The translations under genes and the position numbers were made by a program. A stretch of DNA of 64,000 nt. It comes from an uncultured Chthonomonadaceae bacterium. GTDB taxonomy: Bacteria; Armatimonadota; Chthonomonadetes; Chthonomonadales; Chthonomonadaceae. The notes under the pieces are model-generated. The model searched no databases. It was not told the origin of the DNA and saw only the letters and a program-made list of their open reading frames with translations. Positions 5,719-36,371 of the stretch are shown piece by piece; position 1 is the stretch's first letter; every line of letters begins with the position of its first letter. The stretch is from contig CAWIEK010000044.1 in the NCBI GenBank assembly GCA_963835065.1, positions 64,001-128,000 of the forward strand, in the 5' to 3' direction.

Positions 5719-5721
5719 ACC

Positions 5722-10739: not shown

Positions 10740-10745
10740 GAAGGC

Positions 10746-10861: not shown

Positions 10862-10878
10862 TACTTTGAGGAGGCAAT

Positions 10879-12360: not shown

Positions 12361-12374
12361 AGGAAAAACATACC

Positions 12375-12659: not shown

Positions 12660-12662
12660 GCC

Positions 12663-13473: not shown

Positions 13474-14157
13474 TCATGCCACCCACCCACTCCGCCGCAG
13501 CGCGAAGCCGATGATGAACCCTAAGATCGCCAGGAACAGGAGCATCCACCAGCCTCGGTAGCGGTATTCCGCCTTGACGCGCACTTCCAGGCGGGACTTG
13601 TTGTCGGGGTCTACGCCGTTGTGCGGCCACGCGCCCTGACTGTACAGGCTGTCGGTCAGTTTCAGCGCGATACCTTTGTGGTCGAACACATCGTAGCAGC
13701 ACACCGCGTCAATCTTGCCCGCCGTATGCAGATTTTCCAGCACCTGGCGCACCGGTATCTCCGGGTCCAGTATCCATTCGCTTGTTCCGCCAGGCGTTCG
13801 GATCATATAAGCGTCGCGGGCGAAGGTCAGCGTGATGAAGGAATTTTTCGTGACATCATCCAGCGTATTGGGCGCGTTTTGCCGACGGTTGTAGGGTAAA
13901 AATTTCCCATCCGCCCAGAAGTGCCGGAACAGATCGTTCATCTTTTCCCAGGCTTGCAAATCCGCCTGCTCCGCCATACGCTGCTTGCACTTTTCCTTCA
14001 GCGCGGTCAGGGGCGTCCCGGCAGGAAACTGCCCGATGTTGTAGATTTTGGCGTCCGGGAGCGCGTCCTGTCGTTTGGGCAGGCCGCCCTTTTCCGCCGC
14101 CCGCCCATCCAACTCCGGCAGGTTCACCTTGATATGTATGTCTTCTCGCATGGGCAT
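13474..14157 (-). CDS. Membrane-anchored protein, weakly TssN-like soluble domain with C-terminal TM helix
   Basis: DLFRHF...YNRR...ILDPEIPV recalls the T6SS-iii TssN soluble domain; C-terminal WWMLLFLAILGFIIGFAL TM. Confidence 0.45.
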   Translation of the reverse strand: MPMREDIHIKVNLPELDGRAAEKGGLPKRQDALPDAKIYNIGQFPAGTPLTALKEKCKQRMAEQADLQAWEKMNDLFRHFWADGKFLPYNRRQNAPNTLDDVTKNSFITLTFARDAYMIRTPGGTSEWILDPEIPVRQVLENLHTAGKIDAVCCYDVFDHKGIALKLTDSLYSQGAWPHNGVDPDNKSRLEVRVKAEYRYRGWWMLLFLAILGFIIGFALRRSGWVA

Positions 14158-14188
14158 TGTTCGTCGCTTTTGCTCCTGCGTTCGATTG

Positions 14189-16234
14189 TCACGAACCCTT
14201 GATGCCGCGTTGCTCTTTAAAGGGTTCATCCAATGAGTCTCGATGCCCTTTCCAACTTACAACCGCCCATTTTGGGGAGTGTACGGGGAGTGTTTTGACG
14301 TAACCCCGCAGGTCTTTACGCGCCGTGTCGGGAAGGTTATCCGCATCTACTGCCAGCAAGATATATTCAAGATCCTTCTGTCCGGTGGCATCGATCTGAA
14401 GGGGAACATCGCGTGTGTCACTGTTCTGCCACGCCATCTCGTATGGGTGATGAGTTCCATCTGCTTCGGTCACGTCCTGCTTCCCATCCGGTTCGCGCAG
14501 TACAGGCTCGGCTTCTCCAACCATGTTCTTCATATAGCTCATTATCGGGCGCGCTTTTTCTCCCGAAACGCTGAACAATTGGAAATAGTACTCCTTGAGC
14601 GGGAGTACAAAGGTGAGTTCGCTGGGGCGGCCTTCCTTTCTGGCCTCGACACTCAGAGTGAGTTCAAGAGGATTGTCCGTTCTCAGAACCGATAATCCCG
14701 CCCGCTTACAGAGTTCCTGCATCGCCGTTAACTTCGGCGCGGGAACCTTGATATGAGGGGGGCGCTTTTTAGGCGTGTGGGGATTGACAACCACTCCCCC
14801 CTGTCCCTGCCTGGGATCATGCGTTATGACTCCGCCAGATGGATTTACAGGCACCCCCCCGCTGCCAGGAGAACCCGGCGGCGGTCCGGTAATCGTGGGT
14901 GGAGCAATTAGTGGCCGGATAGGCTGTTGTTGAACCGGTGGCGTTTTATCCGATTCTTTAGGCTTGTCCGGCAGTTTATCTAATTTCAACTCTGCTGCGC
15001 ATGGAACGACATAGTTGTGGTCGTGGAATTTGCGCCGTTCGCTTACGTAAGAGATGTCAACGGGTTCCTGGTGTCCAACAGTGAAATGCTCCTTCATTGC
15101 GCTGGAAATATCAACCAGCAGTTCATAGGGTTCCGTTTCCTGCGAACTCCCACTCCACCCAAACGGCCAGCGATACCAAATATAGCGCTTGGGCAAAAAG
15201 AATTGGTACACATTGTCTCCAAGCGGGCGGCCATGGTAGCGCTTTTCAACAGCGTCCCTGTGTGACAGCAGTTCCACGCCTTGTATATCTTTCGGATTGA
15301 CAACCATGCCCGGAGGTGGTTTTAGCTGCAAATTAACTGTCGCTCCGGCATTTTCCGGGATGCCCCGGAACATCCAGACAAGCGCGCACACCACGAACAA
15401 TCCGCCGCCGATGAGCAGGGGATAGTCGTACCACCAGAGATGCCGGAACGGCACGTAATCTACAAACGTCTGCTGCTCGCAGGGCGCGACAAAGGCCGGG
15501 GAGGCTTCCCTGGGCGGCGTTACGGCAGCGTCGGCGCAAAGCGTGAAATTCTCGTTACGCTCGCGCGGATTGAGTCGGATGGTCACGGGCAGGGTAATGG
15601 AGGTTTCCGGCGCAAGCGCGTACTCCGGCAGCTTGGAAACCTTCGCGCCGTGATCCGGCGTTTCGCCCCGATACACCTGCGGCTTCACGCCCAGTTCCAT
15701 GTACGACCAGTTGCTGACGGTGATCCGCGCTTTGGGCGAGCCAAAGCCCCAGCGATGCCAGGGACGCAAGCGTACAACTTCGGGGGTTAATTCCACGCGC
15801 ACGTCGCGCTGCGTGGGCGGGGGAAACCAGTGGTACGTTTCCGGTTCGCCGATGAGCGAACCCCCATCCTGGGGCGAGTTGGTGTCGTGCTTAAAAAGAG
15901 AAACGACAAATTCACAACTTGCTTCGCGCTGACTAAGCACAACCAGCGTCAGCGTGACCCCCTCTCCCGGAGGCAGCGGAAATTTGTCGCCCGGCTTGAT
16001 ACGCCCCATATTGGAAGTAGTCAGCTCATATTCGCCGGGACTCAAGCCTTCCACGAGAATACTGGCAAACCGCATTTGAACATTCTGGTTTTCAAGCGGC
16101 CAGGTCAGTTCCGTGCCGTTGCCGACAGCGTTTTCATCCAGGCGCGCCGAAGCGCGGCCCCCGGCCCCATACTGAAACGGGCGTTCGGAGGGCCGCTGGC
16201 GGCTTGAAGATCGGGTTCGCGGCTGTATAAGCAT
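14189..16234 (-). CDS. Large single-pass membrane protein with Ig-like N-terminal domains and Pro-rich linker
   Basis: TM LLIGGGLFVVCALVWMF; PPTITGPPPGSPG linker; operonic with the T6SS-like genes. Confidence 0.65.
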   Translation of the reverse strand: MLIQPRTRSSSRQRPSERPFQYGAGGRASARLDENAVGNGTELTWPLENQNVQMRFASILVEGLSPGEYELTTSNMGRIKPGDKFPLPPGEGVTLTLVVLSQREASCEFVVSLFKHDTNSPQDGGSLIGEPETYHWFPPPTQRDVRVELTPEVVRLRPWHRWGFGSPKARITVSNWSYMELGVKPQVYRGETPDHGAKVSKLPEYALAPETSITLPVTIRLNPRERNENFTLCADAAVTPPREASPAFVAPCEQQTFVDYVPFRHLWWYDYPLLIGGGLFVVCALVWMFRGIPENAGATVNLQLKPPPGMVVNPKDIQGVELLSHRDAVEKRYHGRPLGDNVYQFFLPKRYIWYRWPFGWSGSSQETEPYELLVDISSAMKEHFTVGHQEPVDISYVSERRKFHDHNYVVPCAAELKLDKLPDKPKESDKTPPVQQQPIRPLIAPPTITGPPPGSPGSGGVPVNPSGGVITHDPRQGQGGVVVNPHTPKKRPPHIKVPAPKLTAMQELCKRAGLSVLRTDNPLELTLSVEARKEGRPSELTFVLPLKEYYFQLFSVSGEKARPIMSYMKNMVGEAEPVLREPDGKQDVTEADGTHHPYEMAWQNSDTRDVPLQIDATGQKDLEYILLAVDADNLPDTARKDLRGYVKTLPVHSPKWAVVSWKGHRDSLDEPFKEQRGIKGS

Positions 16235-16270
16235 TTTTACTATCTTTACCTTTTTAGTTAATTTGGGCTG

Positions 16271-16777
16271 CTATTGAGGCTTTCTGTCAAAAATCACGGG
16301 ATAGTCGAACGAAAATTTGTCTTCCGGGCTGGCATCCTTACGATAATTCTCAAATTTATCATGCCAGAGTTTGATGTTCTTGTTTCCCTCGCTCGCCAGT
16401 TGCTTTTCCTTCTTATCCAGTAACTCCATGTACTCTTTGCGCGTAGGCCATGTTACTGTGTCTTTCCAAACCTGATAACTTCTATCATCCGGGGTGAACT
16501 CCAGATACTCTTTTTCACCCGAATGTTTACTCAGTTGATAAGGTTTTGATAATGACGGGTCGCTTAAATGCGTCTTGTGTTGGTCCTTGGCTCTGATGGA
16601 GTTACCATCCTTATCAAAACCAAAAAAGAGCAGCGTGATTTTGCCCTGCTGTTGGGGGGGCGGTATGGCCGGCGCCGGCTTCGGAGTCGGCTTGCCAAGC
16701 AGATACCCGATTACGCCGCAGACCGTAAACGCCGCAAACGCTTTTAACCAGAATATATTTGACAGACAGCGTAACAT
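16271..16777 (-). CDS. Small N-terminally anchored membrane protein (TssO-like size and topology)
   Basis: 168 aa; TM WLKAFAAFTVCGVIGYLL followed by a Pro-rich linker. Confidence 0.55.
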   Translation of the reverse strand: MLRCLSNIFWLKAFAAFTVCGVIGYLLGKPTPKPAPAIPPPQQQGKITLLFFGFDKDGNSIRAKDQHKTHLSDPSLSKPYQLSKHSGEKEYLEFTPDDRSYQVWKDTVTWPTRKEYMELLDKKEKQLASEGNKNIKLWHDKFENYRKDASPEDKFSFDYPVIFDRKPQ

Positions 16778-16794: not shown

Positions 16795-17886
16795 TTATTT
16801 GTCCGACCGCCAGTTTATCAAACTACGCTTTTTGATGGTGACATCCGGCGCGCTCGCCCCCGGCGACGGCAGAAAAGGTTTTTCCGAGTTGACGACGACA
16901 CCGCCGCCGGGGCCGCTGTCGGGCGTAATGCCGGCCTCCCACTTCTTGTACTCCTCCGCCAACTTGCGCAGCGCTTCCGAGATGAGATACAGCAAATAGC
17001 CCCAGTCGGTTTCCCGCCTTTCCGCTTCCGGGGGAATTTCCCTCAAAGCGACGGCAAGATGCGCCAGTATTTGCATCTGCTGACCATGATGCGGCAGGAG
17101 GAACCGCAGTTCGTTCAGCTGCATCAATATGCGGTACACGCGATTGAGATAAGCGCGCGGACGCTCGCCCCAATCCAGCACAACGTTCGCTTCCATCAGC
17201 GCCGCCGACATAATGCCCGCTTCCGGCTTGTGGTTCACCAGCAGTTTGTTCAGGTGCGTGAGGCAATTTTCCGCTTGTTCCTGTATCTGCTTCACGGCTA
17301 TGATCAAGCGCGGCATACTGTCCAGGCGCAGACATTCGGGAATAAACGTGTCGTCTTCCCGCAGCCCGGTTATGTCGTTGACGAGTCGCCCGATGCACAG
17401 CCAATCCTCGACGTTTTGTTCCGCCCGCGTGGTGGAAAGCAGATAGCGCATTTGCGAGAAACGGCGCGGGATGCGTCCCTGCGACGATTGTTCCCCGATT
17501 GGTTCCATGCCCTCCCGAATCCCTAAATAAACGGCGATTTTGCTGCCCGTCGCCGACGTTTCCGGGGCAAGGTCGCCGACATAGGGCGCGCACAACGGCA
17601 TACCCGCGCTGATGACGATTTCCGCCGGGTAGCCGCTCGGCATGATGGCCCGACATTCCAGCAGCTTCAGCGTACATTCCCAGATACCGCCCCGCGTGTT
17701 GTTTTGATAGCGCGTCAGACTGAAGGCTTCGCGGGGCATTTTCGCAACCCCATACGCGCCCTGCGCCAGCGCCAACAGCCGCAGTTGATCCAAAACAAAC
17801 TCGCGGTCTTCGGTCAGATACTGCCCGCGCATCATTCCGACCGAGTCCCAATACACGGCGTTCAAGTTAATGGCGTCTCTGCTCAC
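16795..17886 (-). CDS. TssK-like baseplate protein
   Basis: N-terminal AVYWDSVGM (TssK V.W..GM), CRAIMPSGY, IGRL....DDTFIPECL. Confidence 0.65.
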   Translation of the reverse strand: MSRDAINLNAVYWDSVGMMRGQYLTEDREFVLDQLRLLALAQGAYGVAKMPREAFSLTRYQNNTRGGIWECTLKLLECRAIMPSGYPAEIVISAGMPLCAPYVGDLAPETSATGSKIAVYLGIREGMEPIGEQSSQGRIPRRFSQMRYLLSTTRAEQNVEDWLCIGRLVNDITGLREDDTFIPECLRLDSMPRLIIAVKQIQEQAENCLTHLNKLLVNHKPEAGIMSAALMEANVVLDWGERPRAYLNRVYRILMQLNELRFLLPHHGQQMQILAHLAVALREIPPEAERRETDWGYLLYLISEALRKLAEEYKKWEAGITPDSGPGGGVVVNSEKPFLPSPGASAPDVTIKKRSLINWRSDK

Positions 17887-17955: not shown

Positions 17956-19632
17956 TTATTTGGCGAGACAGGAGCGCAGGGGAAGCCCCTCGCGCGTCCG
18001 GGGCGCGTTGCCGTCCGCAAGCCAGGCGGTTTCACCGAGAACAGCCGCGTCTACCGCCCATCGGCAGCGCAGCGGCACATGCGCGGGCAGAAACAGCCGC
18101 CCCAAAACTTCCAGCCGTTTATGCGCCTGCTCCGTTTTTGATTCAGCCCAGGCGTTTTCCACTTCGGGGCGGCCCGCCGCCTGCGCTTTCTGTTCTGCCG
18201 TTGCAGTCGCTTCTGCCGTTACAGTCGCTTCTGTCGCTTCTGTGCCTCCTGCCGCTTCTGACGCTTCTTCCGGTTCGGAGGTTTCAAAGCGCTCATGCGG
18301 CAGATACACGATCACTTCGGGCGCGCGCAAAATCGCTTCGCCTTCCAGCATCAGCGTTAATCCCAACTGCGCAAGGGGCGTTCCCATCCGGCTTTCCACG
18401 CTGTGATAGGCTTCCAGGTGGATGCTTGCGTCCTGGGAAACCAGCAGGCGAACGGCGCGGTCGAAAAGCGCGCCCCAATCCGTCACTTCCCGGCGTTTCA
18501 GCAGCAGCGCCCACAAAATGCCCTGCGCTTGCGGTTCGGAAAACAACTGCCAGTCTTCGGGCATCAGTCCCAAAAATCCATCGTCCTTCCAATCCTGCAT
18601 CAGCCGCAGCAGAACGCCATTCAAGTCCAGGCCGCCGAGCAATCCGTTTTGCGCGTAGGGCTTGCTTTTTCGGCCAAGCCAATAGGCCAGCGGGTTTACG
18701 CCCAAAGCCTCCGGCGACTCCCCGGTTTGAAAGGCCGTTAATGTCGCTGCAAAAAAATCCTCAACGGTCAAATCCCAATCGGGCGGCGACCAATCCATCG
18801 GATACGCTGCGCCTTCCAGCATGTCAATTTCGGCCAGGTGCAGAAACATCAGCGTGAAAAACCGCTCCGCCAATCGCGTGGCCGCATCGGTCTGCGTATC
18901 TACATTTTGATCGTCCCAAACAAAGCCGTGCGGGTTGGCGACGGGAATCAGCTGATTGTCGCGCAGCAGCAGGATGTAATCGGAAGGCGTTTGCAGCGCG
19001 GGCGGCGACTGCAATTCCGGGTACTGCGTTCGCCACAGCCGCGCCAGCCATTGCGTGGGAGACATCGCGCCGGGCATCACCATTCCCTGCGCGCCCGGCG
19101 CGTCGGGCGCGGCCAATCCCTGTACGGCAACAAACCCCAACTGCTCCGTCCATTCGTCCGGGCTGCGGTCAATCAGCCACCGGTGCGTTTCCAGGCAGGC
19201 CTGCTCCTGCCGGTTGGGGATCAGACTCGGCGCGAACTGCGTGTCCCAGAGGCTGGCCGCGAGCCGTTCCGCCAATGCGCGCAGTTCCTCCTCCAGGATG
19301 GGCGCAGGCGTTTTGGGCAGTCCGACCTGCATCAGTGGATACAGCCATTGCAGCCGATTGTCGGCCCGTATATTCAGGTCAATAGAGCCGTCCTGGCGCG
19401 CGGCAATCACTTCCGGCTGCGCGAAATGCCCGACATTGGGCGTAACGCGCATCGTTTCCAGCGGGATGCCCTTTTCCCGCAGCAGCAGCACGGCGTACAG
19501 CAGAAAAGCCGGGCCGTTCAAAGCAGAAAAATACTCCAGTTCGTCGTATTTCAATTCCACTTTCGGCGGCGCGGGCTTGCCGGGCGTATTCGCCTGCCCC
19601 GTTGATGCGGCTTCCGTTGGCTCCGGGTTCAT
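17956..19632 (-). CDS. TssG-like baseplate protein (extended)
   Basis: Starts at the ATGA overlap with the upstream gene; C-terminal LGLTLML...LGRLFLPAHV...VLGETAWL resembles TssG ends; lies between TssF-like and TssK-like genes. Confidence 0.5.
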   Translation of the reverse strand: MNPEPTEAASTGQANTPGKPAPPKVELKYDELEYFSALNGPAFLLYAVLLLREKGIPLETMRVTPNVGHFAQPEVIAARQDGSIDLNIRADNRLQWLYPLMQVGLPKTPAPILEEELRALAERLAASLWDTQFAPSLIPNRQEQACLETHRWLIDRSPDEWTEQLGFVAVQGLAAPDAPGAQGMVMPGAMSPTQWLARLWRTQYPELQSPPALQTPSDYILLLRDNQLIPVANPHGFVWDDQNVDTQTDAATRLAERFFTLMFLHLAEIDMLEGAAYPMDWSPPDWDLTVEDFFAATLTAFQTGESPEALGVNPLAYWLGRKSKPYAQNGLLGGLDLNGVLLRLMQDWKDDGFLGLMPEDWQLFSEPQAQGILWALLLKRREVTDWGALFDRAVRLLVSQDASIHLEAYHSVESRMGTPLAQLGLTLMLEGEAILRAPEVIVYLPHERFETSEPEEASEAAGGTEATEATVTAEATATAEQKAQAAGRPEVENAWAESKTEQAHKRLEVLGRLFLPAHVPLRCRWAVDAAVLGETAWLADGNAPRTREGLPLRSCLAK

Positions 19633-21278
19633 CGCGCAATCTCCGCAAGGATTCGATACCAGCCCAGGGAAAAGTTTTGTTCCAGGCAGGAAGCCGCGTG
19701 GTGCGCCATGTCTTTGAGCAGATAATCCGGCAGCGCAATTGTCGGCTTGACCGGCAGCGTCAGGCGCATGACCGGCGAAATCGGCAGGGAGGGGGCGGCT
19801 TCCTCCGGCGCATTCGCGCCTTCGGTGGGAAGCGGCGGCAGAAACGCGGGCTGATAGGAGAGAAACGGTTCTGCCATGCGCGAAGGCCAAAGATAACTGT
19901 CCCATAGCGTCGGTTCCTGTACGCGCGCATTCACGCCTTCCAGCCGGAACTGCGCGCGGCTGATGTCGAAGCAGCGATGGCAGTCCGGGAGATGCCGTAA
20001 AAATTCCTGCAATTCCCCGAACGTCAGCATCCGGGAGCGCAGGAAAATCCACTGCCACCAGAAGCGGCAGGCGTCGCCCGTCGGGTCGCTGAAATCCAGC
20101 GTCAGCCCGCCGACGGGAAACAGGCTGATGTCAAATTTCGAAGGCGCTGCCTCGCGCTGATTGTCCGGGTCGCTGACAATTTCGCGGCGTTCGCGGCGCG
20201 CGGCGGGTTCTGACGCCTCAAATTCGGCAGGTTCAATCGTGCCCCGGCTGCCGTAATAAACGCGCGCTTCCTGGGCCTGATTGCCACACGCCACGCGCGT
20301 TTTGTTGCCCTCATGGCGCAGCGGCGCGGCCTCCCAGGTGTCCCCGCTCACGCCCGCCGCCGCGAAAACGCCCTTCAAATCATCGAAGATAATCTCGATT
20401 TTACCCATTACCAGGTCGCGGCGCGTCGGCTGCCAGTCCATCTTCATTTGCGCCGCGACAACGGGATTGAGCAGCAGCCAATCGTCGCCCTCCGCGAGCC
20501 GCTTGCGCAAACCCGCGCCAATCTCATCCTCCATCGTGACCGACAACGCGATCTGCGTGGCTTCCCCCCGGCTTCCCCCTGTCTGCCCGTATGTGGGCAG
20601 CGCAGCAAAAGGAGACGGACTCGAACCGGACGGGCTTGCGAAACCTGTGGAAAAACGGAGATGCAGGATTTTGCGGGAATAGGGATAAAAGGGCGGCAGC
20701 CAGGTTTCCAGCGCGGGCGTGGTGGGCGCGGACAATCGCAGCGACTGCTCCAGTTCGCAATACCCTACGTACCGCTCCACCTGCACCGAACAGGGGCGTC
20801 CATCAATCTGCGCGCGCCACGTCGCTTCCGCCAGGCTCGCAACCGCTTCTTCTTCGGCGGCAATGCAGACCAGCATCCCCATTTCCGGGTCGGTTAAATC
20901 GGGTTCCTCCGTTCCGGGGATATGGCGCAACGTCCAGAAGCAGGAGTTTTCGCTGACGCGGCAGTTCTGCGTGAAAATCGGACGAATCCAGCCTTCACCG
21001 CATGGCGTCCAGGGCTCCCGATGTTCGTCAAACGCCACATCGCGCCGACGAATCAGGGGCGTGGCGGCGGGACTGGTTTGCGATGACGTGATCTGCTGCC
21101 AGGCGGGGCTTTGCGGCAGCAGCAATCCCTGCATGGGAAACTGCCAGACGCCCTGCGGCAAAATCTGCGCCGAAATCTGCCCCGCCACATGTCGGTGCGC
21201 CTGTTCCAGCCGCTTCGCCAGAAGTTCGTTCCACTTGTCGAGAAAATTTTCAAAAGGCCGGCTATAGGTGTCTGTCAT
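19629..21278 (-). CDS. TssF-like baseplate protein
   Basis: 549 aa; N-terminal helix then ILPQ...PMQGLL; LLNPVVAAQ; SRMLTFGELQEFL near the C-terminus; synteny. Confidence 0.55.
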   Translation of the reverse strand: MTDTYSRPFENFLDKWNELLAKRLEQAHRHVAGQISAQILPQGVWQFPMQGLLLPQSPAWQQITSSQTSPAATPLIRRRDVAFDEHREPWTPCGEGWIRPIFTQNCRVSENSCFWTLRHIPGTEEPDLTDPEMGMLVCIAAEEEAVASLAEATWRAQIDGRPCSVQVERYVGYCELEQSLRLSAPTTPALETWLPPFYPYSRKILHLRFSTGFASPSGSSPSPFAALPTYGQTGGSRGEATQIALSVTMEDEIGAGLRKRLAEGDDWLLLNPVVAAQMKMDWQPTRRDLVMGKIEIIFDDLKGVFAAAGVSGDTWEAAPLRHEGNKTRVACGNQAQEARVYYGSRGTIEPAEFEASEPAARRERREIVSDPDNQREAAPSKFDISLFPVGGLTLDFSDPTGDACRFWWQWIFLRSRMLTFGELQEFLRHLPDCHRCFDISRAQFRLEGVNARVQEPTLWDSYLWPSRMAEPFLSYQPAFLPPLPTEGANAPEEAAPSLPISPVMRLTLPVKPTIALPDYLLKDMAHHAASCLEQNFSLGWYRILAEIAR

Positions 21279-21321: not shown

Positions 21322-21747
21322 TTAGCCTAAAATATCGTTCTGAATGTATTGCAGCAGTCTATGGATTGTTCGCGCTTCAAGAGTACTCCGTGTTTTTGCT
21401 AAAGCAGCTAGGCGTGTTCTATGTCCCTGATCAAGCGCGCCGGCAACCTGCTGGCGATCCAAATCCCGTAACCCGTCAGCAACCGTGACCAACAACTCAC
21501 CATCTGCTGCGTCCAGCATCTGTATCATCAGAGGAAGCGCATATCGCAACTCTCCATGAGGAAGGATTTGAGCGAGATAGCGCTGCCATTGTAGAGGTTT
21601 TTGGCGCCAAATCCTGTTTAGCGCGTCCCAATCGTCAGATGTCAACGGCCCTATAAGCGTGTGAGCATAAAGGATAACATCATCTGACCAGTAATCCACA
21701 GAGTAGTCCTGACTGAGACAGTCATCAAGCATAGCTAGTGTACTCAT
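21322..21747 (-). CDS. Putative immunity protein for the EndoU toxin
   Basis: 141-aa helical ORF immediately downstream of the toxin C-terminus; lower GC. Confidence 0.7.
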   Translation of the reverse strand: MSTLAMLDDCLSQDYSVDYWSDDVILYAHTLIGPLTSDDWDALNRIWRQKPLQWQRYLAQILPHGELRYALPLMIQMLDAADGELLVTVADGLRDLDRQQVAGALDQGHRTRLAALAKTRSTLEARTIHRLLQYIQNDILG

Positions 21748-21756: not shown

Positions 21757-22950
21757 TTACCATTGGGACGGGTTTCCACCTGTCGGGTAGGAAGAGGTAA
21801 TATTACCTTGCGCATCTTTAATCACTTCCCATTGAACGCCATCCACAGTTTGCCTGTGCAGGGTGGCGCCATCCCTGACACGCGATGCGACTTCCGGGGT
21901 GTCTGCTACCTTTCCAGTCGTATCAAGTATCTTCTGATCAGTCCAGTCATCAGGCGCTAAAGTGGACTGTTTGATTTTAGAAAGATTTCCGTCTGGAAAT
22001 TGAGTTACAAACTTGACTTTTGAAGTGCCGTCAGGATAGGTTTCAAGAACCTCATGGTCGAAATTGGGCGATGTTTTGATTTGAGGAGAATGCCCTCCAA
22101 TAACTTCGTTGGACATTCCTCCTGGTGAATTAGCATTTGGCACTCGTTGACTGTAAAGAATCTTCTGCTCCATTTCAGGAGTAAGTCTCTGGCTTGCAGG
22201 AACTTCGACTTCACCCGGAACGAACTTTCCCGCAAGCCCACTGCCGAGCGCAGCACCCGCAAAGCCACCTGCAAAGGTTAGAACTTTCTGACCGGTAGAC
22301 CCCTCTCCGAAAATCTTGCCGCCTGCCCAATGCCCGCCCATACCGCCGCCGATGCCGCCCAAAAACCCGCCGCCCAGCCTGGCGGCGATAGCAGCCATGC
22401 CTAATCCCCTGGCGGTCATTGCCAGGCCACCGCCGGCCAATCCCAACACCAGCAAGGCTGCCTCAGCCTGCCAGGGAACTTCGCTATGGATGTCCGCGCA
22501 GGTATGTACCGGGCCGCCAATCAAAACGGTGGAACACCCTTGCGCGATGACAAAGCCGCATACGCCCTTATCTGTTTTACGCGCCGCGTGCAAGCCTTCA
22601 ATCAAGACGGTTTCGCTGCCCTGCGCGACCAGAGACACTTTATGGGCGACGCAAGCAACCTTACTGCCACATGCAATGGCCGCCTGCCGTCCGTCGCCTC
22701 CAATGTAAACTGTGGCTGCTCCCGTGATGATAGGGCCACTGTCGGCAGGGATCATGGAGCCAACAACTTCGCCTATCATCCCTCCCAGAGACGCTCCCGT
22801 ACACGCCGCGCCCGCAATCGCCAGCGCCGCCGCGCCGCCGGTCGCAATGATTGCCGCGCCAATCACTGCGCCCGCAAGCGCGCCCACTATCAACCCCGCG
22901 AATGCAGAGGAATGTGAAACCTGATCTCCTATTCGCGCGGCTTCCGGCAT
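21757..22950 (-). CDS. prePAAR-TMD-PAAR effector with C-terminal EndoU-like nuclease toxin
   Basis: AARIGDQVSH prePAAR motif, Gly/Ala TM segments, PAAR (TVLIEGLHAARKTD); CT with IGGHSP, K.STLAPDDW.D and terminal ITSSYPT. Confidence 0.85.
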   Translation of the reverse strand: MPEAARIGDQVSHSSAFAGLIVGALAGAVIGAAIIATGGAAALAIAGAACTGASLGGMIGEVVGSMIPADSGPIITGAATVYIGGDGRQAAIACGSKVACVAHKVSLVAQGSETVLIEGLHAARKTDKGVCGFVIAQGCSTVLIGGPVHTCADIHSEVPWQAEAALLVLGLAGGGLAMTARGLGMAAIAARLGGGFLGGIGGGMGGHWAGGKIFGEGSTGQKVLTFAGGFAGAALGSGLAGKFVPGEVEVPASQRLTPEMEQKILYSQRVPNANSPGGMSNEVIGGHSPQIKTSPNFDHEVLETYPDGTSKVKFVTQFPDGNLSKIKQSTLAPDDWTDQKILDTTGKVADTPEVASRVRDGATLHRQTVDGVQWEVIKDAQGNITSSYPTGGNPSQW

Positions 22951-22968
22951 AATCAACAGTCCCCAGGT

Positions 22969-23391
22969 TCAGCGCAGCAGGCTGAAACTCTCAACCAGCG
23001 ATGCAAGCTGCTTTTCGTAGCGGTCGAAATTTACTTCTAAAGCGGTGGCCGTCAGCGTCAAAGCGAGCTGATTGGAATAGAAATAGTATTGATGCTGACG
23101 CATCATACCGTTCTCGGAACGCCAGGTAAAATTGGCTCGGATCGTGTGCCTGCCCCCAATAGCGGCAGGGCGCTGCTCAAGCAGAAGAAACCCGTTCAGA
23201 TTTGCCTCTAAGACTTTCAATTGCCTGGCTGCGTAACTGTTCACATCTTCGTCGGCTCTGGCGTCTTCTCGATTCATCACGACATTGAACTCGCCCGGAC
23301 TGGCTCCCGCATTGGTAAAGATGTGAACAGACAGGTCTTTCCACCCTTCGGGCAGGAAGAAGGATCCCTCATTGAACTTGTATAAAGGCAT
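22969..23391 (-). CDS. DUF1795/DcrB-like (Eag) effector chaperone
   Basis: YKFNEGSFFLPEGWKDLSVHIF N-terminus typical of DcrB/Eag; directly upstream of the prePAAR effector. Confidence 0.85.
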   Translation of the reverse strand: MPLYKFNEGSFFLPEGWKDLSVHIFTNAGASPGEFNVVMNREDARADEDVNSYAARQLKVLEANLNGFLLLEQRPAAIGGRHTIRANFTWRSENGMMRQHQYYFYSNQLALTLTATALEVNFDRYEKQLASLVESFSLLR

Positions 23392-23519
23392 ATACGCTTC
23401 CCTCATTATCCCAAGACCGGAAGATAGTTGTTTTAGAGACGGTTTCGCCCGCCTGCGGGGCCGCAGCAGCACTTGCCGGTGGCATTGCGGCGACCCGCTT
23501 ACTTTTGGATTGCTGATTC

Positions 23520-24332
23520 TTACGGATGGTGAGACTGTACAGGCAGATCACCCGGCAGGATAGGCCGACTAAGCTCGCCGGTATATTTCAGCACTTGCAG
23601 GCCCGTACCCGGAACGGGTACAGAAGAGCGCAGCAGTTCTATATCTTTGTCTGACAGTCGGGTCTTTACGGCTGCTGCATTTAAATCCAGCGCCGTTGAG
23701 CCGAGGAAAGCTGAAGGTGTCGCTGTCACATCGGGCCGCGCGGTGACATATTGAACGATTAGCTCGATCTGCTTCGCCTGGACAGGCGCCATAGGGATGG
23801 TATCATTTCTGAAGAAATAGGCGCTGTGTTCTGAAACAGGAACAGGAACCTCAATATCCAACTGCAGATCAGAATGTGCCTTAAGGCGGGTGGCACAGGG
23901 CCGATTGGAGTAGGTAACCAGCCTTTTGGGGAGTGGAGACGCGCCTAATAACAGGCGTAATGTCCCATCTTGAAAGAAGCAGTAGACGTGTTCCGGGTCA
24001 AGAACGGGATGATTATTTTTGGCCTCCAACCGCCACAGACGGTTTAGCACATAAATGTCTTCATTGCCAGAGTTCGTTATGTGTATGCCGACACGCAAAA
24101 TAGAGGCGCTGGTCACTGTGAAATTTGTTTTCATATGAACCGAACCCCGCGTAGAAGTTGGGTCGGAACTTGGCGTTCCGCTGCCAAGCGGCACATTTTG
24201 GCCGACAGTGTTCATGCTTTTGCTCCTTATTTTGTTTTTATCGTCTTTGGCGAGACTACGACAGGCAAGATTGCAGCCTAAGGCTGCAATCAACATTATA
24301 CATCGCCAGCGCTTTTTATATTGTGTTTGCAC
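23520..24332 (-). CDS. Putative lipoprotein, candidate immunity protein to the VgrG-fused peptidase
   Basis: GTG start just after the vgrG stop gives basic n-region KKRWR, a hydrophobic stretch and a Cys lipobox (ALGC/NLAC). Confidence 0.55.
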   Translation of the reverse strand: MQTQYKKRWRCIMLIAALGCNLACRSLAKDDKNKIRSKSMNTVGQNVPLGSGTPSSDPTSTRGSVHMKTNFTVTSASILRVGIHITNSGNEDIYVLNRLWRLEAKNNHPVLDPEHVYCFFQDGTLRLLLGASPLPKRLVTYSNRPCATRLKAHSDLQLDIEVPVPVSEHSAYFFRNDTIPMAPVQAKQIELIVQYVTARPDVTATPSAFLGSTALDLNAAAVKTRLSDKDIELLRSSVPVPGTGLQVLKYTGELSRPILPGDLPVQSHHP

Positions 24333-24339
24333 ACTACAT

Positions 24340-26772
24340 TTAAGGCTGCGACGGAGGCGTGTTGGGAACAAAAGCATTGTCAGCATCAGAATGATTTACC
24401 CTGTGGTATGGATAGCCTATGTCGCGCAGATAATCTGCTTCCGAAGGCGTTCCTGTTGAAATTGTAGTTTTTTCTTCCAGTGTGTCGAAGACCGGGTCCG
24501 GCGCGCAGTCGCCAATGCCGTTCATCTGATGCGCGCCATGTGTCATTTCGTGAAACAAAATGGCATCATTAGGAACCGGATGTGCCGGATCAAGGGAGTT
24601 TGTAAGCGTTAGATCCGGCAGAAGCCTTACAGTGGTATCAGCCCCCGTTCCAGTACCAATGCGCTGTGTTACGCCATCAGCCTCCATAACGGGTGCCCCG
24701 GAGCCGTAGAATACAGGTTTACCTACAGCCGTAGACGCTTGCCATTCATCATCGGTATCCGGGCCGCAATCGCTGTTTGGTCCGTTTGGATCGTTAGCTG
24801 GATACTCGGTAATCTTCATGTTGTGTCCGCTCTCATCAATGCTGTTGAGGGTCTGCATACCGGAATCGGTAGTGGCAATTTTGTCAAGCCGATCCAATGC
24901 CTGCGCCTGGAAAGCGGGCGTACCGTGAATGGTAATAGCCCTGCCTACTTTGGTGTCCCCGTTGGGCAGCTTCGTAACGGCCATTCCTCCAACAGTACGC
25001 GTTGCCGCAGTGCCCGTTCCCGCGCCTCCTGCTGGCCCTGCTCCCACGCCTAAACTCGTGTCCAGGTGCAGGGGTGACATGGAGGTGGGTCCACAGTTGA
25101 TCATAACGAGCGGCGTTCCGTCTATCTTGACAGTTCCCTTTGTCGCCTTCATCTGGATCGTGCCCGCTTCCAGCATCAACTGGTTGTCGGCGTGCATGTA
25201 GATGCTGCCCGAACAGAAGATGTCAAGCTGCGCGGGGCCACTCCCCTTCTCGAAGTGAATACGATCACTCCCCGAACTTGTCAGGTCCATCACCACTGTC
25301 TCTTTGCCGCCCTCGATCTCGCCCCGAAAGATCAACTTGTCCTTACAGCGTATCTCTACAATGTCGGTGGCGCCTTTGTCTTTCGTCGTCATGCTCACCA
25401 GATTACCCGAAGGTGTCCGCCACAACTTGGTTTCATCCGGCGCATACACAAACCCCTGCGCCGCATGTTCACGCACCGACCCGATCACGACTGCATCGCT
25501 GTCCCAACCATCTAAGAACTGCACAAGCACATGCTCGCCCACTTCCGGCAGCGACAGAAAGCCCGACGTGCCGGTCTTGCCCTTCAACCCGCCATATGGT
25601 GTGACGGTTTGCAGCCAGCACAAGCGCGTAAACGGCGTCGCTTCCAGCGGCTCCCAATCGAACTCCACCTGAATACGCCCGCTCTTGGTCGGATCGTCGC
25701 TATTGTTCTTGGTCACATGCGCCCACAGGCACTGCATCGGCCAGTTGGTGCGCCGCAAGCGGGGAAGCAGGGGCATCAGTTTGTCTAAGAGCGCGAACTC
25801 CTGCGACACGGCTTCGCTGCCATGTCCTTGTATGGTCACGTCGCGCACCAGCCAGGGTTGTTCGGCAAAGTTGACCAACGCGCCAGGCGCAAAGGCGTAC
25901 ACGCCTCCCATCCAGCGCGCCCGGCACACAACCGTGTTCACATCCAGGTTGGTCGCATCCTCTAACTTCTGTTCCTGCTGGTACTGCGCATGATGGGGCG
26001 CGTCCGCTTTCGGTTCGTACAGGTGCCCCGGCGCGCGCGTCAAACCCGCGTTGAACTCCAGCACCTTAGAACGCGCAATACCCGGCGACGCGCTGCCGGT
26101 GCCCTGCGCGGTTGTTTGTATGGGAACCAGGCCCGCTTCCAGACTGGTCGTATTCCAGTGCCTATCCGCGCTCGGAAACTCGTCGCCTGCCGGAACGCTC
26201 GGTTTGCCGATCAGCACTTTGCGGTTGAGGTCGTCAACGGCTAGGGGAATGCCCCACGCATGCAGCATCCGGCACAAGTAAGCAAAATCGGTTTCTTCGT
26301 ACTGGACGCTGAGGGGTATCTTTACGCTTCCTGTTGCGCTCGCCCCGCCTTCGCCGAAGTCAAGTTCTCCCTTGTTCTTGCCGATGAGGTAATCGCACAC
26401 ATCTTTGAGCGTACAGCTTTCCCACACGCGGAAGTTGCGGATTTGATCCAGGCGCGCGCTGTAGGACACGCACTCGAAGTGGAAGTAGGCGCGGTGTTCC
26501 AGCCGTTCGGCGCGCACGGAGCGCACATAGCCCCGGAAGCAGTCCACCGTTTCGCTGTCATCCTTAGAATGCCAGCGCAGCAGCACATCGGCGTTGAGGG
26601 TTTTTGCGCCTTTTTCGGCAAGAGCGGCGTAGGTATCGGCTTCCTGATCGTCGGTTCCGAGCGTACAATGGGCCGTGCCGTGCGTGTACAGGCGGCGGAC
26701 GATGGACACATCGGCCAGTTCCGTTTTGGCGATCAGCCCGTTGATTACACCCGACACGATCTCGAACGACAT
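24340..26772 (-). CDS. vgrG: VgrG spike with C-terminal M91-like zinc metallopeptidase (evolved VgrG)
   Basis: VQYEETDFAYLCRM, DDPTKSGRIQVEFDW, LPEVGEHVLVQF; C-terminal LFHEMTHGAH (HExxH) and EEKTTI. Confidence 0.9.
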   Translation of the reverse strand: MSFEIVSGVINGLIAKTELADVSIVRRLYTHGTAHCTLGTDDQEADTYAALAEKGAKTLNADVLLRWHSKDDSETVDCFRGYVRSVRAERLEHRAYFHFECVSYSARLDQIRNFRVWESCTLKDVCDYLIGKNKGELDFGEGGASATGSVKIPLSVQYEETDFAYLCRMLHAWGIPLAVDDLNRKVLIGKPSVPAGDEFPSADRHWNTTSLEAGLVPIQTTAQGTGSASPGIARSKVLEFNAGLTRAPGHLYEPKADAPHHAQYQQEQKLEDATNLDVNTVVCRARWMGGVYAFAPGALVNFAEQPWLVRDVTIQGHGSEAVSQEFALLDKLMPLLPRLRRTNWPMQCLWAHVTKNNSDDPTKSGRIQVEFDWEPLEATPFTRLCWLQTVTPYGGLKGKTGTSGFLSLPEVGEHVLVQFLDGWDSDAVVIGSVREHAAQGFVYAPDETKLWRTPSGNLVSMTTKDKGATDIVEIRCKDKLIFRGEIEGGKETVVMDLTSSGSDRIHFEKGSGPAQLDIFCSGSIYMHADNQLMLEAGTIQMKATKGTVKIDGTPLVMINCGPTSMSPLHLDTSLGVGAGPAGGAGTGTAATRTVGGMAVTKLPNGDTKVGRAITIHGTPAFQAQALDRLDKIATTDSGMQTLNSIDESGHNMKITEYPANDPNGPNSDCGPDTDDEWQASTAVGKPVFYGSGAPVMEADGVTQRIGTGTGADTTVRLLPDLTLTNSLDPAHPVPNDAILFHEMTHGAHQMNGIGDCAPDPVFDTLEEKTTISTGTPSEADYLRDIGYPYHRVNHSDADNAFVPNTPPSQP

Positions 26773-26910: not shown

Positions 26911-27345
26911 TTAGTTTTCGGCTGCCGTGCCGGCCGAGACGTCAATGAGGTTCTTGCTATCGTAGTTGACGGTTCCGGGCAACGCGGCCATAATGTTGAC
27001 CGTGATGGTGGAACCTGTCAGCTGCAAGTCCGTGCCGACGCCGCCTGCCGTGACATCCGATCCCCATTCGTTTTCCGCATAGCTGCTGACCCAGGCGTGA
27101 GGAATTATCCAGTTGTGCTGCGGCTTCTCATCGCGGCTTTCCGTGCTCAATTCCACTTTCTTGAAGCGGTCCGGGCCGGCTTTGGCCTTTACCCAGTCGG
27201 CGAGCAGCGTGTCTTCAGTCAGCCGCACAATGACTACCATCCCGGCGATGGGCACTTTGAGCGGTTCGCGGCTGTCGCCATGTCCAATGTTCACGGTTGC
27301 GCGCAGCACCTGCTGAATCTCGGTGCCATTGATTTTCAGTTTCAA
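26911..27345 (-). CDS. Hcp/TssD-like tube protein
   Basis: 144 aa between sheath and vgrG; AAGGAG RBS before TTG; TEDTLLADW and AWVSSYAEN recall T6SS-iii TssD. Confidence 0.65.
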   Translation of the reverse strand: MKLKINGTEIQQVLRATVNIGHGDSREPLKVPIAGMVVIVRLTEDTLLADWVKAKAGPDRFKKVELSTESRDEKPQHNWIIPHAWVSSYAENEWGSDVTAGGVGTDLQLTGSTITVNIMAALPGTVNYDSKNLIDVSAGTAAEN

Positions 27346-27602
27346 CGTTTTACTCCTTGTCAGTTGCAAACTTCGAGTTCAAAACTAGTTCCAGGACGAT
27401 TTTGAAAAGGCGCTTGCCGGGATGCGGCAGGGCATTTCCCTTTGCGCATGTAGAGCGTTCGCCTTTGCGCATGAAAATGTCGAAGTGTCCGCTCCTGGAA
27501 TACCGAACACCGGAACGCCGGCATCTTCATACAATGTCACCAGTCCCTAGTGGCTAATCAATAGTGGCTGGCCGAAAAATGGTTTGTCGCTAACGTCGTT
27601 GT

Positions 27603-30108
27603 TCAATTGAAGGAAATATGCAGATCGCCGACAACGCCCTCTTTGAAGTTCAGCTTGATGCTGTAACCGGCGGAAGGGTCGTCCACGTCATTGGGCGTGA
27701 CCACAACGCCGTCTTCTTTCAGCGGGCCGGGGAACGCATTGACGGTCTTGCCCAGCGGATCGTACCAGCCCTTGTTGCCGCCGTCCACATACAGCAGAAT
27801 TTCCGCGATAAGCGCTTCCATTTCCTCCTGCGTGGGCAGCGCGCCGCCTTCAAACGCTTGATACGCCAGCAGCAGGCGGCGCAGATACACCTCCTGCCGG
27901 TAGTGGTGAATCATGCGATAGCGATAGCCGGAGCCGATGTCCACGCGATACAGCGTGCGCGGCGCGACAATCGCAGGGTTTTTGCCGGCAACATGCCGAA
28001 ATACGAGAAACGACTGATCCACGCCCGAAAACTGCGAATAGATGTCGTCGCCGGTAAACTCGTCGAGCGGTACGCGGGTCTGCGCGAATATGGGATGGGC
28101 GGTAACATCTACGGCAATACCGGGCAGTCTCGGGTTCACCTGTTGCTGCATTTTGGAAATAGCCTGCAGCACTTTGGGCTGGTCATTCGCCATGATGCGT
28201 CCCGCCGCGACATAGCAGGCGCGCACGGCAACGGGCGGCACTTCCACCGCTACCTCGCGCCCGTCCGCCACCTTGCCCGTGATCAGTACGCCGTCCGGGG
28301 GCAGGCACAGGAAATCGGGCGCGCACAAAATGCCGGAAACCGCCCACGACTGCCCCACAACGTCGTCCACGCAGTAATCGTTTTGTACGCCTTCCACAAC
28401 GACTTTTTTCGCCCGCCCGGAAATCAGCCTTTCTTCGGGCGAGAACAGTACTTGAAAGCCGCACTCATAGCCCAGTTCCATCAGGCCCATCACTTCGGCT
28501 GCGCCCGCCACGCGCCCAAACCCGCCGAACTGCTCGATGCGCTCGTGGCGCAGTTTCTCGATGCGCGCGTCCAACTGGATATGGTCATCCTCGACCTCGG
28601 CCTCTGTGGTACGCTGGTAATCCTCTTCAAAGTTGCCGCCCCGGATGCGCCCCTCGCCGGGGGGAGTCGGTTCCTGGCCGAGGAAGGGAGCGACATGCGG
28701 CACAATCGCAAAGGAAATGGCGTCCTGGTACTGGTTGCCAGCCTGGTGGCATGCGCGGCGCATGTAGTAGACAAGCTCTTCCTGATAGATTTGCCACAGG
28801 TCGGTCAGTTCGCCGTTGGCGACGATAAGTTCCGGCTGTATGCCCATGACGTCCGGCGGAAACTCGTTGAAGAGAGAATAAACTCCCATAATCGTTTCAA
28901 ACAGAGGAATCACTTCGCGGAGGAAGCTTTGTACGCCCTTGCTGTACACGCCAAGAAAATCGTCATGCGCTTTCGCCAATTCCTGCGCGTCGAATTTGTA
29001 GGTGATTCCATCCGGGCCGGTCAGACCTTTGGCAAGTTCTTTGGGATCGTTGAGGACGACGGCAAGCAGGTTTCCTACAACCGGGTCAATCTTCTTCAGA
29101 CGCACCATCTCGCTCATGAAGCTGCCGACAACGGCGGGAAGCTGGGCTTTTCTGTCCTTGATGGTAGCGATTTCGCTCAGGTCGCGCTTTGCCAGGGGCT
29201 TGCTTTCCAGCGCGTTGCGCAGGGGAACCAGTTCCGTGCTTCCCGTGCGGGTGGCCGCGCCCGCGCCGATGGCCTTGCGCGTGGGCGGCGGCAATTTGGG
29301 AATGTCTTCGACGCTCAGGCGGCCATTGGTTCCGATGGTCAGGAACAAATTTTGATCGCTTGATTGACCGCTGCCCCCACTCGGCCCGACCATAGATTTG
29401 TAAGATTCCAGCAGCGCGTGTTCCGCGATGGCTGTGGTGCGCAGTTGATCGGACAGCGCGTTTTCCAGTTCGGACTTGCGCCGCTCAAAGGCTTCCAGCG
29501 AACGCTGGATGTCCTTGTTCATCTTCACTTCGCCGCTGGAATCTTCGGCCCGCTTCATTTCGATCAGCAGTTTTTCCAACTGGGCATGCAGCGTCTGCAT
29601 GGACTTTTTCACCAAGCCGTACTGTACGCTGGGCTTGAAGCCAAACAGCGCTTCGTCAATGTTGACCCGATCCGCGCCCTGACGCAAACGCACCCGATTG
29701 CTGATAAGGTCGCGCAGCGAACGGATGAAGGGATGGGAACTCGTTGATGAGTATCTTGGTCCAGCCCGGCCCGCCTTCCAGCGAGAACTCATAATGCGGA
29801 AGTTCATCAAGGGAGTAGACCTGGCCTTCCGCGTCTTCGGTCGTGATTTGCCCACCCGCCCGTAGGCGATAAAAAAAAGCGGGCTGCATCTTGTCCATGA
29901 ACTCTTTGAAAGAATGGACAGCCAGTTCTTTCTTGACTTTGTCTCGAAATTGCGTCCACGTCATCAAGCCGGACTGCAAATAGGCCAGCATATCTTCCAG
30001 GCGTGGCGCATCTATGGACAAGTTGACGGAGGTAAACAAAATGGCGCGGCTGGTGTTGGGCTGCATGGTCTGATTGACAAATTGCAGCGTTTTACGATTA
30101 ATGGGCAT
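27603..30108 (-). CDS. Contractile sheath (TssC/DUF5458-like) with long N-terminal extension; frameshift near 29738
   Basis: Removing one base joins KILINE to SHPFIRSL (about 835 aa). The C-terminal half has ELIVANGELTDL, ISFAIVP, GILCAPDFL and VPP...AAGRI, resembling DUF5458 sheath motifs. Confidence 0.6.
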
Positions 30109-30235: not shown

Positions 30236-30601
30236 GCGTCAACTTCACAAATTGATAAATATGATCAGATGGATGAGGCGCAAAGCGGTTTTAGGCCAGC
30301 GAAATTGGAGGATCTGCTGAATTTAAGAGAGTGTTCTACCCTAACCAACCTGACAGGCGAAAAGTTCTGTTGCGGTTCCCAATCTGGCGCGATTTTAAGA
30401 AAATTTTATTCAAACCACAGAGGAAAAGCATATCCAGTCGGTCAATCTATATCCACGCCCTGTTACTTTCAACAGCCTGCCCGGGCGCAAACGATTTTCC
30501 CATACTCTGTTACATCTTCCAATGGTCAAGGCATGTTAGATAAATGCAACCAAATGGATTGTGTAAAAATATTCCTGAGCAACTATCCCGGAGGTCGTTC
30601 C

Positions 30602-31879
30602 ATGCCAAAGTATACACACATGGTTTGTTTGGTTGGCGAGAATCCTCTGCCTATCTGGTTGGGAATTCACCAGTTTATGCCATCGAAGCAAGAAACGGCC
30701 AACATAGAAGCAAAGCCGATTGTCCGTCTCGTCTACTCAAGTCAAACCAAGAAGGTCGCTGAACACCTGCAAAAACAGTTGCAGCATGAAAGCGATAGTG
30801 GTCTGCACGAGATTAGATGCTTATTCGATGCCGATGGCGAACTCAAAGAAGCCTTTTCACCACAGGCAATGAGGGAGACGTTGAAAAAGCTGAATGGCGA
30901 GAACCTTAGTGATCTTGACGATTATGCGTTGAACTACACCGGTGGCACAAAGGTTATGGCTGCCTACTTTCTCCACGACTGGATGACGACCGGACGCAGT
31001 GACCGCGCATTCTATCTACAAGAAACAAACGGGCAATTTCACTTTGATAGCGGCACCCCATATCCACTTAAGCCAACTATTAGAGAGTTGACACTTGACA
31101 CTCTCGAAAGACTTCACGGCGCTAATCCGCATTCGTTGCGCCCCAATGTGCCCTGTAACAAACAAGATTGTGTGAATTTTTATAATGCACATCAAAGCGG
31201 CGAGTTGGCAAAAATCAAGAAGAAGTCATCTGATAAGTGGAACCCACTAGAACCTTCAATTCCTTACTTTCATGCCCAAGTTGAAAGTGAAGGAACTTGG
31301 AGAGGGGAGAGTGAATGGGCGCAAATTTTTACACTACTCACCGACAATGCGCGTACGCAATGGCAGCAATCTATCTTCTATTCTGATGACACAAAGCAAA
31401 AGCTCAGTGAAGAACTCAAGGAGCAGTTCCGCTTTGCCTTTAAGAATGAGTGGCTGGAATGGCTTGTCATGTTCTGGCTGAAAGAAGTATTGCCTGACAG
31501 TAAAGTTACCACTGGCAAGAAGTTCAAAATTGAAGGCCAAGAGTTTGAAGCAGATGCGCTGGTGGTTCACAAGAATCGTCTTTATTACTTCTCTGTCACT
31601 ACCAAATTGAAGCCCGATGAGTGTAAAGAGAAAATGTTCGAGGCTATACACCGCTCGCGGCAGTTGGGTGGTGGATTAGCGCGTTCTTGTACCATTTGCC
31701 TGGCAGATGAATACGATGATTACGAGAGCGGCAAAAAGGTGGATACAGTTTCAGCAATTCGTAAATCTCTCACGAGCAGCGATAAAATCGGGAACCACAC
31801 CATCTTTGGACTTAAAGAGATCACTAAATGGCTAACTGATGAAAACATCGAAGATATGGAAACTTTCATCAATCAATAG
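30602..31879 (+). CDS. CARF-domain + PD-(D/E)xK nuclease (Card1/Can2-like cOA effector)
   Basis: LVGENPLP and LNYTGGTKVMA CARF motifs; EWLE...EFEADAL...FSVTT...KMFEA..R..QLGG nuclease domain. Confidence 0.85.
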   Translation: MPKYTHMVCLVGENPLPIWLGIHQFMPSKQETANIEAKPIVRLVYSSQTKKVAEHLQKQLQHESDSGLHEIRCLFDADGELKEAFSPQAMRETLKKLNGENLSDLDDYALNYTGGTKVMAAYFLHDWMTTGRSDRAFYLQETNGQFHFDSGTPYPLKPTIRELTLDTLERLHGANPHSLRPNVPCNKQDCVNFYNAHQSGELAKIKKKSSDKWNPLEPSIPYFHAQVESEGTWRGESEWAQIFTLLTDNARTQWQQSIFYSDDTKQKLSEELKEQFRFAFKNEWLEWLVMFWLKEVLPDSKVTTGKKFKIEGQEFEADALVVHKNRLYYFSVTTKLKPDECKEKMFEAIHRSRQLGGGLARSCTICLADEYDDYESGKKVDTVSAIRKSLTSSDKIGNHTIFGLKEITKWLTDENIEDMETFINQ

Positions 31880-31893
31880 AGAGGATTTCTGGT

Positions 31894-33378: not shown

Positions 33379-33386
33379 GAGATGTG

Positions 33387-35189: not shown

Positions 35190-35559
35190 CGAACTGAATC
35201 GCCAAAACGAGGCGATGCGCAGGCGGTTTCAGAAACAGCAGGCATTGGATGATGAGAAAGATATGCTGGCGAAACTAGCAGTAAGTCTGGTGGACAAACT
35301 ACGTGCGAACCAGGAAGTCAGATTTCCCAAAAAGTCTCAGCTTCAAAACTTTCGCACTGCCGCTGCCGGTTACGTTTCTGTCCAGGAGATCAAAATCTAC
35401 ATCACCTATCAGATGAGTTGAAGTCAAAGCCCGCTCAATCGGACTTTTGGCAAAACCATCATTGACAATCTCGACAAATTTGACAACGATATTGAAAAGT
35501 CCCGGCTCTTCTTAGGCTACTTCTGCCGGTACGGTGCGCAATTTGCCGAGAAAGGATAA
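35170..35559 (+). pseudogene. Cas11/Csm2-like small subunit with an in-frame TGA at 35419-35421
   Basis: KSQLQN...IYITYQMS*SQSPLNRTFGKTIIDNLDK...RLFLGYFCR; the reading frame continues to TAA at 35557-35559. Confidence 0.75.
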
Positions 35560-35563
35560 CAGG

Positions 35564-36358: not shown

Positions 36359-36371
36359 AAAGGAATTGCGC

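Follow-up and report, generated by a model that had tools for sequence, protein, structure and literature searches.

The window analysed here, 64,000 nucleotides from an uncultured Chthonomonadaceae bacterium, carries on its minus strand (27603..30108) one gene of about 835 codons, whose reading frame is interrupted in this assembly by a single extra base and whose product is predicted to be a contractile sheath with a TssB-like and a TssC-like part in one chain. We put at about 0.68 the probability that it belongs to a likely undescribed T6SS subtype related to T6SS-iii. This reading rests on the unity of the gene, the single-chain form of its relatives, a conserved gene order and sequence affinities, all read directly from the data, together with a sheath fold that is predicted. 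T6SS sheaths are described as two proteins in the available part of PMC9230969.

Two overlapping ORFs are called at this place on the minus strand, one of 150 aa (30108-29656) and one of 750 aa (29855-27603). Compared with relatives there is one extra base at 29738..29739 (minus strand), inside the TssB-like part and not at the TssB/TssC boundary. In tblastn comparisons the frame changes at about 29720-29745 with all five full-length homologues compared, their N-termini matching the first ORF and the remainder the second, and the sequence of the closest relative, P0002, continues uninterrupted over the frame change (...ITESHPFIRSL). Run X1 supplies a contig over 27500-30111 that is about 97% identical, with 88 differences, and lacks one base at 29738 (depth 2); among the X1 differences listed, 24 of the 26 that lie in the gene are at third codon positions (57 further rows follow those listed). 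The proposal that the two ORFs join if one base near 29738 is removed is thus borne out by a contig of about 97% identity without the base and by single-chain relatives: the ORFs of 150 and 750 aa together make up a single gene of about 835 aa that carries one extra base.

The in-frame part of the second ORF matched 32 proteins, namely its own shortened call (696 aa) and 31 others, in a search covering protein lengths of 391-1245. Judged by the labels of these homologues, the lineage would be Armatimonadota. All 31 non-self homologues are single chains of 806-922 aa, and every one of them matches the N-terminal 240 aa of P0002. In a scan of 401 genomes of the phylum the sheath gene was found in 18, this genome included; 16 of the other 17 have it in one stop-free frame of 844-874 aa, and in the 17th it is interrupted by contig ends. 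A split within a contig is confined to the present genome among the 18.

That two true genes, or a programmed frameshift, yield separate TssB and TssC proteins is scarcely credible. In its favour, the ORF calls number two, and the first has the size of a TssB; the break, however, falls within the region resembling TssB, some 115 codons ahead of the linker, and both the near-identical contig and the relatives are continuous; programmed frameshifting was rejected on the same grounds. We also regard it as unlikely that the extra base is real and that the strain carries a recent pseudogene. Weapons are often lost, no source reads were at hand over 29738, and near-identical pieces of run X2 miss the site, all of which leaves room for a pseudogene; against it, the remaining ORFs of the cluster are of normal length and the assembly contains further frame switches. 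Because such switches occur at six unrelated sites of this assembly, among 96 matched genome bins, an assembly error is more likely than a true lesion. The frame switches lie in ordinary genes of C53 (three places), C28 and C70 (two places), which suggests that the assembly is indel-rich and that other 'split genes' of this genome should be read with caution.

The fold was predicted with AlphaFold2 for the relative P0002 (77% identical, 843 aa) rather than for the window's own protein, giving a model with pLDDT 72 and pTM 0.75. Foldseek returned no row at E < 0.001 with this model, and its best eight rows are all sheaths, six of them T6SS chains and the other two from eCIS (E 6e-3 to 3e-2). 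A wide VIA search gave 27 rows above Z 9.1, every one of them a contractile sheath (Z 11.7-19.2), the next unrelated row standing at 9.1. The two-domain core of the contractile sheath superfamily is present in the predicted model, and the family is accordingly predicted to fold as a contractile sheath. Single-chain sheaths superpose from model residue 1-17 onward and TssC, VipB and IglB chains from residues 372-400 onward, which suggests that the N-terminus may occupy the place that TssB has in a T6SS. TssC chains align with the C-terminal half over 313-358 residues (339-358 for those of V. cholerae, P. aeruginosa, M. xanthus and Francisella); the best single-chain sheaths reach 305-327 residues although they align along the entire chain. 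Z-scores are highest for eCIS, pyocin and phage sheaths (17-19.6) and lower for TssC (15-18), mostly within error of each other. The C-terminal half has extra structure in common with TssC, notably the long helix 374-414.

Projected onto the minus strand of the window, the protein comprises four regions. A TssB-like region (29615..30070), corresponding to about residues 12-160 of P0002 on an approximate residue map, carries the NRT and 'V-SF-EF--KF-P' motifs. It is followed by a predicted long helical hairpin (29390..29633) at the place where T6SS sheaths carry surface domain 3, of which it is a candidate counterpart only. A low-confidence linker (29195..29385; model residues 240-304, pLDDT below 50) may represent the TssB/TssC junction, and the TssC-like region (27606..28995) spans model residues 372-835. 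In the accessible part of PMC4632598, surface domain 3 is composed of the C-terminal helices of TssB and the N-terminal helices of TssC. The P0002 model has a helical insertion at the domain-3 place, where the VipB residues below 60, the domain-3 helices, are left unaligned. Modelled alone, the N-terminal 240 aa reach pLDDT 87; with this piece both fold searches were filled by coiled coils and listed no TssB from the PDB, and the ESM Atlas gave no usable match.

At the sequence level, the family has no match among the Pfam, NCBIfam and PDB sequence profiles, and none of 31 family members passes the PF17541 (DUF5458) cut-off. Genome scans for PF17541 around G405 (0 of 201 and 0 of 251) had no positive control and are hence uninformative. 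An exhaustive HMM search found 269 proteins, the best 150 of which were listed; among 123 proteins of 600 aa or more, a set that includes 14 close cluster-mates added to it, 119 combine the N-terminal block with a block further along within a single chain. Relatives of 860-900 aa form a third branch (P0065, P0074, P0082, P0100, P0114, P0159 and P0173). The family is absent from the plasmids searched, and a viral library gave weak tail-sheath rows.

For profile comparisons, T6SS-iii profiles were built from annotated loci, in which TssB was identified by its position before the DUF5458 gene and by UniRef labels. Against the family profile of 117 sequences (A2), TssB-iii matches the N-terminus over 103 columns (probability 57%, E 1e-4) and TssC-iii the C-terminal half over 259 columns (77%, E 2e-5), compared with 0.5% (E 0.12) for TssB-i and 2% (E 0.022, 37 columns) for the phage/eCIS sheath with the same tool. 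Local profile scores were 23-27 for TssB-iii versus at most 17 in ten column shuffles, and 26-27 for TssC-iii versus at most 23. The phage/eCIS N-terminal motif reached 24 over 51 columns in a local run, as high as TssB-iii (23) but over fewer columns, and TssC-iii is closer to eCIS sheaths (94%) than to this family. The narrow alignment of 31 sequences alone matched neither TssB-iii nor TssC-iii. Comparisons with T6SS-i TssB, TssC, Hcp, TssF and TssG were non-significant and carry little weight, several being made from single sequences. The earlier note's interpretation is largely supported by these results. Its idea that the N-terminal part is a TssB equivalent agrees with the moderate TssB-iii profile match found there and with the superposition of single-chain sheaths from residue 1-17, and the kinship to T6SS-iii holds in that the nearest of the tested profiles are those of T6SS-iii. 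Its statement that DUF5458-like motifs lie only in the C-terminal half stands as far as the profile match, which is confined to that half, but finds no counterpart in a Pfam or NCBIfam hit.

The genes downstream of the sheath, all on the minus strand, are consistent with a T6SS-like machine. Adjacent to it, a 152-aa protein (26911..27369) resembles TssD/Hcp-type tubes, with matches to TssD-iii (E 1.6e-4) and to the Bacillota tube described below (E 1.1e-4) and no significant match to the T6SS-i Hcp profile. Family hits identify a VgrG with a C-terminal M91 peptidase domain (24340..26772) and a prePAAR-PAAR-EndoU nuclease effector (21757..22956), and between them lies a DcrB-family effector chaperone (22969..23472; PF08786, E 1e-25). 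By position, two genes with no family hit are a probable immunity or accessory gene (23520..24386) and a probable immunity gene (21322..21747). A conserved 549-aa gene (19629..21278) might encode a TssF-like wedge, given weak matches to TssF-iii (E 0.06) and Bacillota F10 (E 0.02), and a conserved 557-aa gene (17956..19629) might encode a TssG-like one, again with weak matches (TssG-iii, E 0.1; Bacillota F13, E 0.004). A TssK-like protein (16795..17886) matches TIGR03353 below its cut-off (E 1.7e-6) and TssK-iii with 84% probability (E 8e-6); its G261 orthologue passes the PF05936 cut-off. Three ORFs of 168, 681 and 251 aa (13474..16777), each with a hydrophobic segment by hydropathy, are a candidate membrane anchor. 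This arrangement recurs in 40-kb stretches from eight loci, picked for long contigs from the 17 other matching genomes of the phylum: the tube, 549-aa and 557-aa genes are present in 8/8, VgrG in 7/8 and TssK in 6/8, and of the three hydrophobic ORFs the 251-aa gene has relatives in 7/8 and the 681-aa gene, weakly, in 4/8.

We find no separate tssB-sized gene in the cluster, as had been proposed: the 152-aa neighbour is tube-like, and PF05591 (TssB-i) has no match in this genome, nor in any of 21 genomes in a scan whose positive control matched. A TssB-i HMM run over 10,869 six-frame ORFs gave weak matches (E 0.5-1), five of the six ORFs being the sheath itself, and a TssB-iii HMM over the same ORFs matched only an unrelated one (E 0.58). 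By tblastn, which is insensitive to distant relatives, neither 86 locus stretches nor the genome yielded TssB, TssE, TssA, TssJLM or TssNOPR, and the stretches yielded no Clp ATPase; for TssNOPR, a single protein of each of N, O, P and R served as query, which has low sensitivity. The E. coli W T6SS set found in the genome only VgrG and three Clp ATPases on other contigs. Pfam baseplate-J and gp25 had no match among the cluster ORFs scanned, and the PF17482 matches in this genome lie in two places only, both outside the sheath cluster.

Several features of the surroundings are recorded here in their own right. An eCIS-type cluster with Rhs, phage-base-V spike, sheath initiator and baseplate J genes (1-13439, plus strand) converges on the T6SS-like cluster, its own sheath lying just ahead of the window at position 57808 of C44. 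In G066 a PF17482 sheath is located about 23 kb from the one-piece sheath; the genomes matching PF17482 do not include G112, which has the cluster on its single contig. A type III CRISPR set (CARF, Cas10 and four RAMPs; 30269-38512, plus strand) is divergent, 160 bp from the sheath start codon; in the Bacillota genome G650 (L130) a RAMP cluster occurs just past a sheath cluster.

The earlier note suggested that Firmicutes 'transcriptional regulator' proteins of vgrG clusters are kin to this sheath, and this is confirmed in so far as relatives there adjoin tube, VgrG and DUF4280 genes; by sequence comparison, these Bacillota proteins appear to be its distant relatives. The name itself is attached to 2 of the 10 clusters looked up (Tyzzerella and Lachnospirales; Clostridium formicaceticum), the others being unnamed or hypothetical. 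For a Bacillota member, the ESM Atlas returned clusters so named and then PF17541 TssC as the nearest named cluster (0.94), which is a lead only. In GTDB species genomes at least 729 of 771 stretches were confirmed. Among the matches listed, 80 GTDB loci come nearly all from Lachnospiraceae or Clostridia, with two from Selenomonadales, and one full-length ORF is present in 78 of these 80 loci. A sample of the class Clostridia gave full-length matches in 7 of 300 scored genomes, the centre genome included.

The Bacillota gene order begins with a vWA protein, the sheath, two tubes, DnaJ, two FHA and two PP2C genes and continues with F10, F13, F15, F36, then Phage_GPD/VgrG, DUF4280 and toxin genes. 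Of 60 long loci, 54 have tubes after the sheath. The tubes of both phyla match each other (E 1e-4), and the Bacillota tube matches TssD-iii (E 1e-3). F13 and F10 are weak profile matches of the 557-aa and 549-aa genes, respectively, and F36, the gene in the TssK position, has no match to TssK. Ahead of the sheath, 55 of the 60 long loci have a vWA-domain membrane protein (e.g. L056:8214-9986), a possible anchor component; TssR of T6SS-iii has a vWA-like domain according to the available part of PMC10781749. Other peculiarities of these loci are a tandem array of three tube genes in each of G289 and G268 (L028, L029), one gene being extended at its C-terminus; a tandem pair of complete clusters on C1 of G650; a VgrG-type protein of Lachnospiraceae that ends in a colicin E5-like RNase domain and is encoded next to a sheath cluster (L039:3075-5495); and, by eye, small ubiquitin-like, ThiF/E1-like and further genes apparently between core and VgrG (L134:14649-19458, G765).

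Among known systems, T6SS-iii of Bacteroidota is the nearest. It provides the best profile matches for both parts of the sheath, for the tube and, in this phylum, for TssK; the order of TssB-part, TssC-part and tube equals tssB-tssC-tssD of a Hymenobacter locus; and its membrane-protein genes come after the G-K pair, a position taken here by the hydrophobic ORFs behind the G-like and K genes. In contrast to the separate TssB and TssC genes of T6SS-iii, the sheath here is one chain, its relation to PF17541 is confined to a profile-profile match, and TssE, a Clp ATPase and TssNOPR were not detected in the loci by tblastn. In the accessible text of PMC10781749, the T6SS-iii set consists of TssB, DUF5458/PF17541 TssC, TssD, TssK and TssNQOPR, TssK docks on TssN, whose gene lies beside tssG and tssK, and no T6SS-iii is reported outside Bacteroidota among more than 20,000 genomes. 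Because of the single chain, the missing PF17541 hit and the lack of a detected known membrane complex, the system would, by analogy, work like a T6SS and stand nearest to T6SS-iii, yet fall outside it. With T6SS-i/-ii (VipA/VipB, TssB1C1, IglA/IglB) it shares TssC chains that superpose on model residues 372-835, long helix included, and VgrG, PAAR, DcrB and TssK-like genes in the cluster; it differs in the single chain, the lack of a significant TssB-i or Hcp-i profile match, and the failure to find TssJLM, TssA, TssE and ClpV here. The sheaths of eCIS, R-pyocins and phages (Afp, PVC, Streptomyces CIS, P1) likewise build the core from the N- and C-parts of one chain (Z 17-19.6) and have short motifs in common with the family, which in turn differs from them by its large helical insertion, its TssK- and TssD-type partners, and cluster ORFs that gave no baseplate J or gp25 hit when scanned. 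Finally, the Bacillota relatives sit in clusters of the predicted Gram-positive 'phage-like translocation system' (DUF4280/PAAR_H2, Phage_GPD). PMC5349215 and PMC8651086 name no sheath or tube for that system, and PMC8651086 states that conserved eCIS or T6SS genes are absent from those clusters. Our literature search found no description of this sheath system within a coverage that left out most subscription journals and supplements, and a prior description is possible.

By extension from T6SS biology, the sheath would polymerise in the cytoplasm around the TssD-like tube, starting from a baseplate of VgrG-PAAR and TssF-TssG-like proteins. TssK may tie this baseplate to a lineage-specific membrane anchor, here possibly the three hydrophobic ORFs and in Bacillota possibly the vWA, FHA and PP2C membrane proteins. 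On contraction, neighbouring bacteria would be injected with the VgrG-peptidase and PAAR-EndoU effectors, against which the adjacent genes would confer immunity. As no ClpV was found in the loci, the sheath may be single-use, or a different chaperone may recycle it; a speculative candidate for such a helper is the DnaJ gene of Bacillota.

The same machine could be built from a chain that was never split, a pre-split relative of T6SS sheaths resembling those of eCIS with an inserted helical domain, for which 'fusion' would be the wrong word. We hold this to be a serious contender, at somewhat less than even odds, and it is compatible with the proposed function. Phage/eCIS motifs are kept at both ends, single-chain sheaths obtain the highest Z-scores, TssC-iii is itself near to the eCIS sheaths, and neither phylum showed a split form; however, stretches specific to TssB-iii and TssC-iii align far longer than those of eCIS, and a disordered linker is predicted where a junction is expected. 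It is improbable that the cluster encodes a tailocin or an extracellular injection particle that forms inside the cell and is set free when the cell lyses. The single-chain sheath, the failure to find ClpV, TssJLM or TssNOPR, and the eCIS-type cluster next door both here and in G066 would suit such a particle. The TssK-like protein, TssD-like tube, DcrB chaperone and pairs of toxin and probable immunity genes are T6SS traits, though, and the cluster ORFs scanned gave no Pfam baseplate-J or gp25 hit; moreover, the one-contig genome G112 has the cluster without being among the PF17482 matches. We retain as the likeliest reading a one-gene TssB+TssC sheath of a T6SS-iii-related subtype.

T6SS is usually regarded as a Gram-negative machine with a two-protein sheath. 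We lean, by a little over even odds, towards a new subtype of T6SS, characterised by its one-piece sheath and present in this phylum and in hundreds of monoderm Bacillota species, gut Lachnospiraceae included, which would be the missing engine of predicted Gram-positive PAAR/VgrG delivery and a living intermediate between single-chain eCIS and two-chain T6SS sheaths. The sheath cluster is a candidate for the translocation system predicted in Gram-positives by PMC5349215 and PMC8651086, and would then answer the question raised there. The widespread label 'transcriptional regulator' would be corrected, and the finding is relevant to the question of how the sheath of the T6SS came to be split and to acquire its recycling domain. 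If true, common Gram-positive gut commensals would possess an overlooked T6SS-like weapon, and a likely weapon would be added to models of competition in the gut microbiome.
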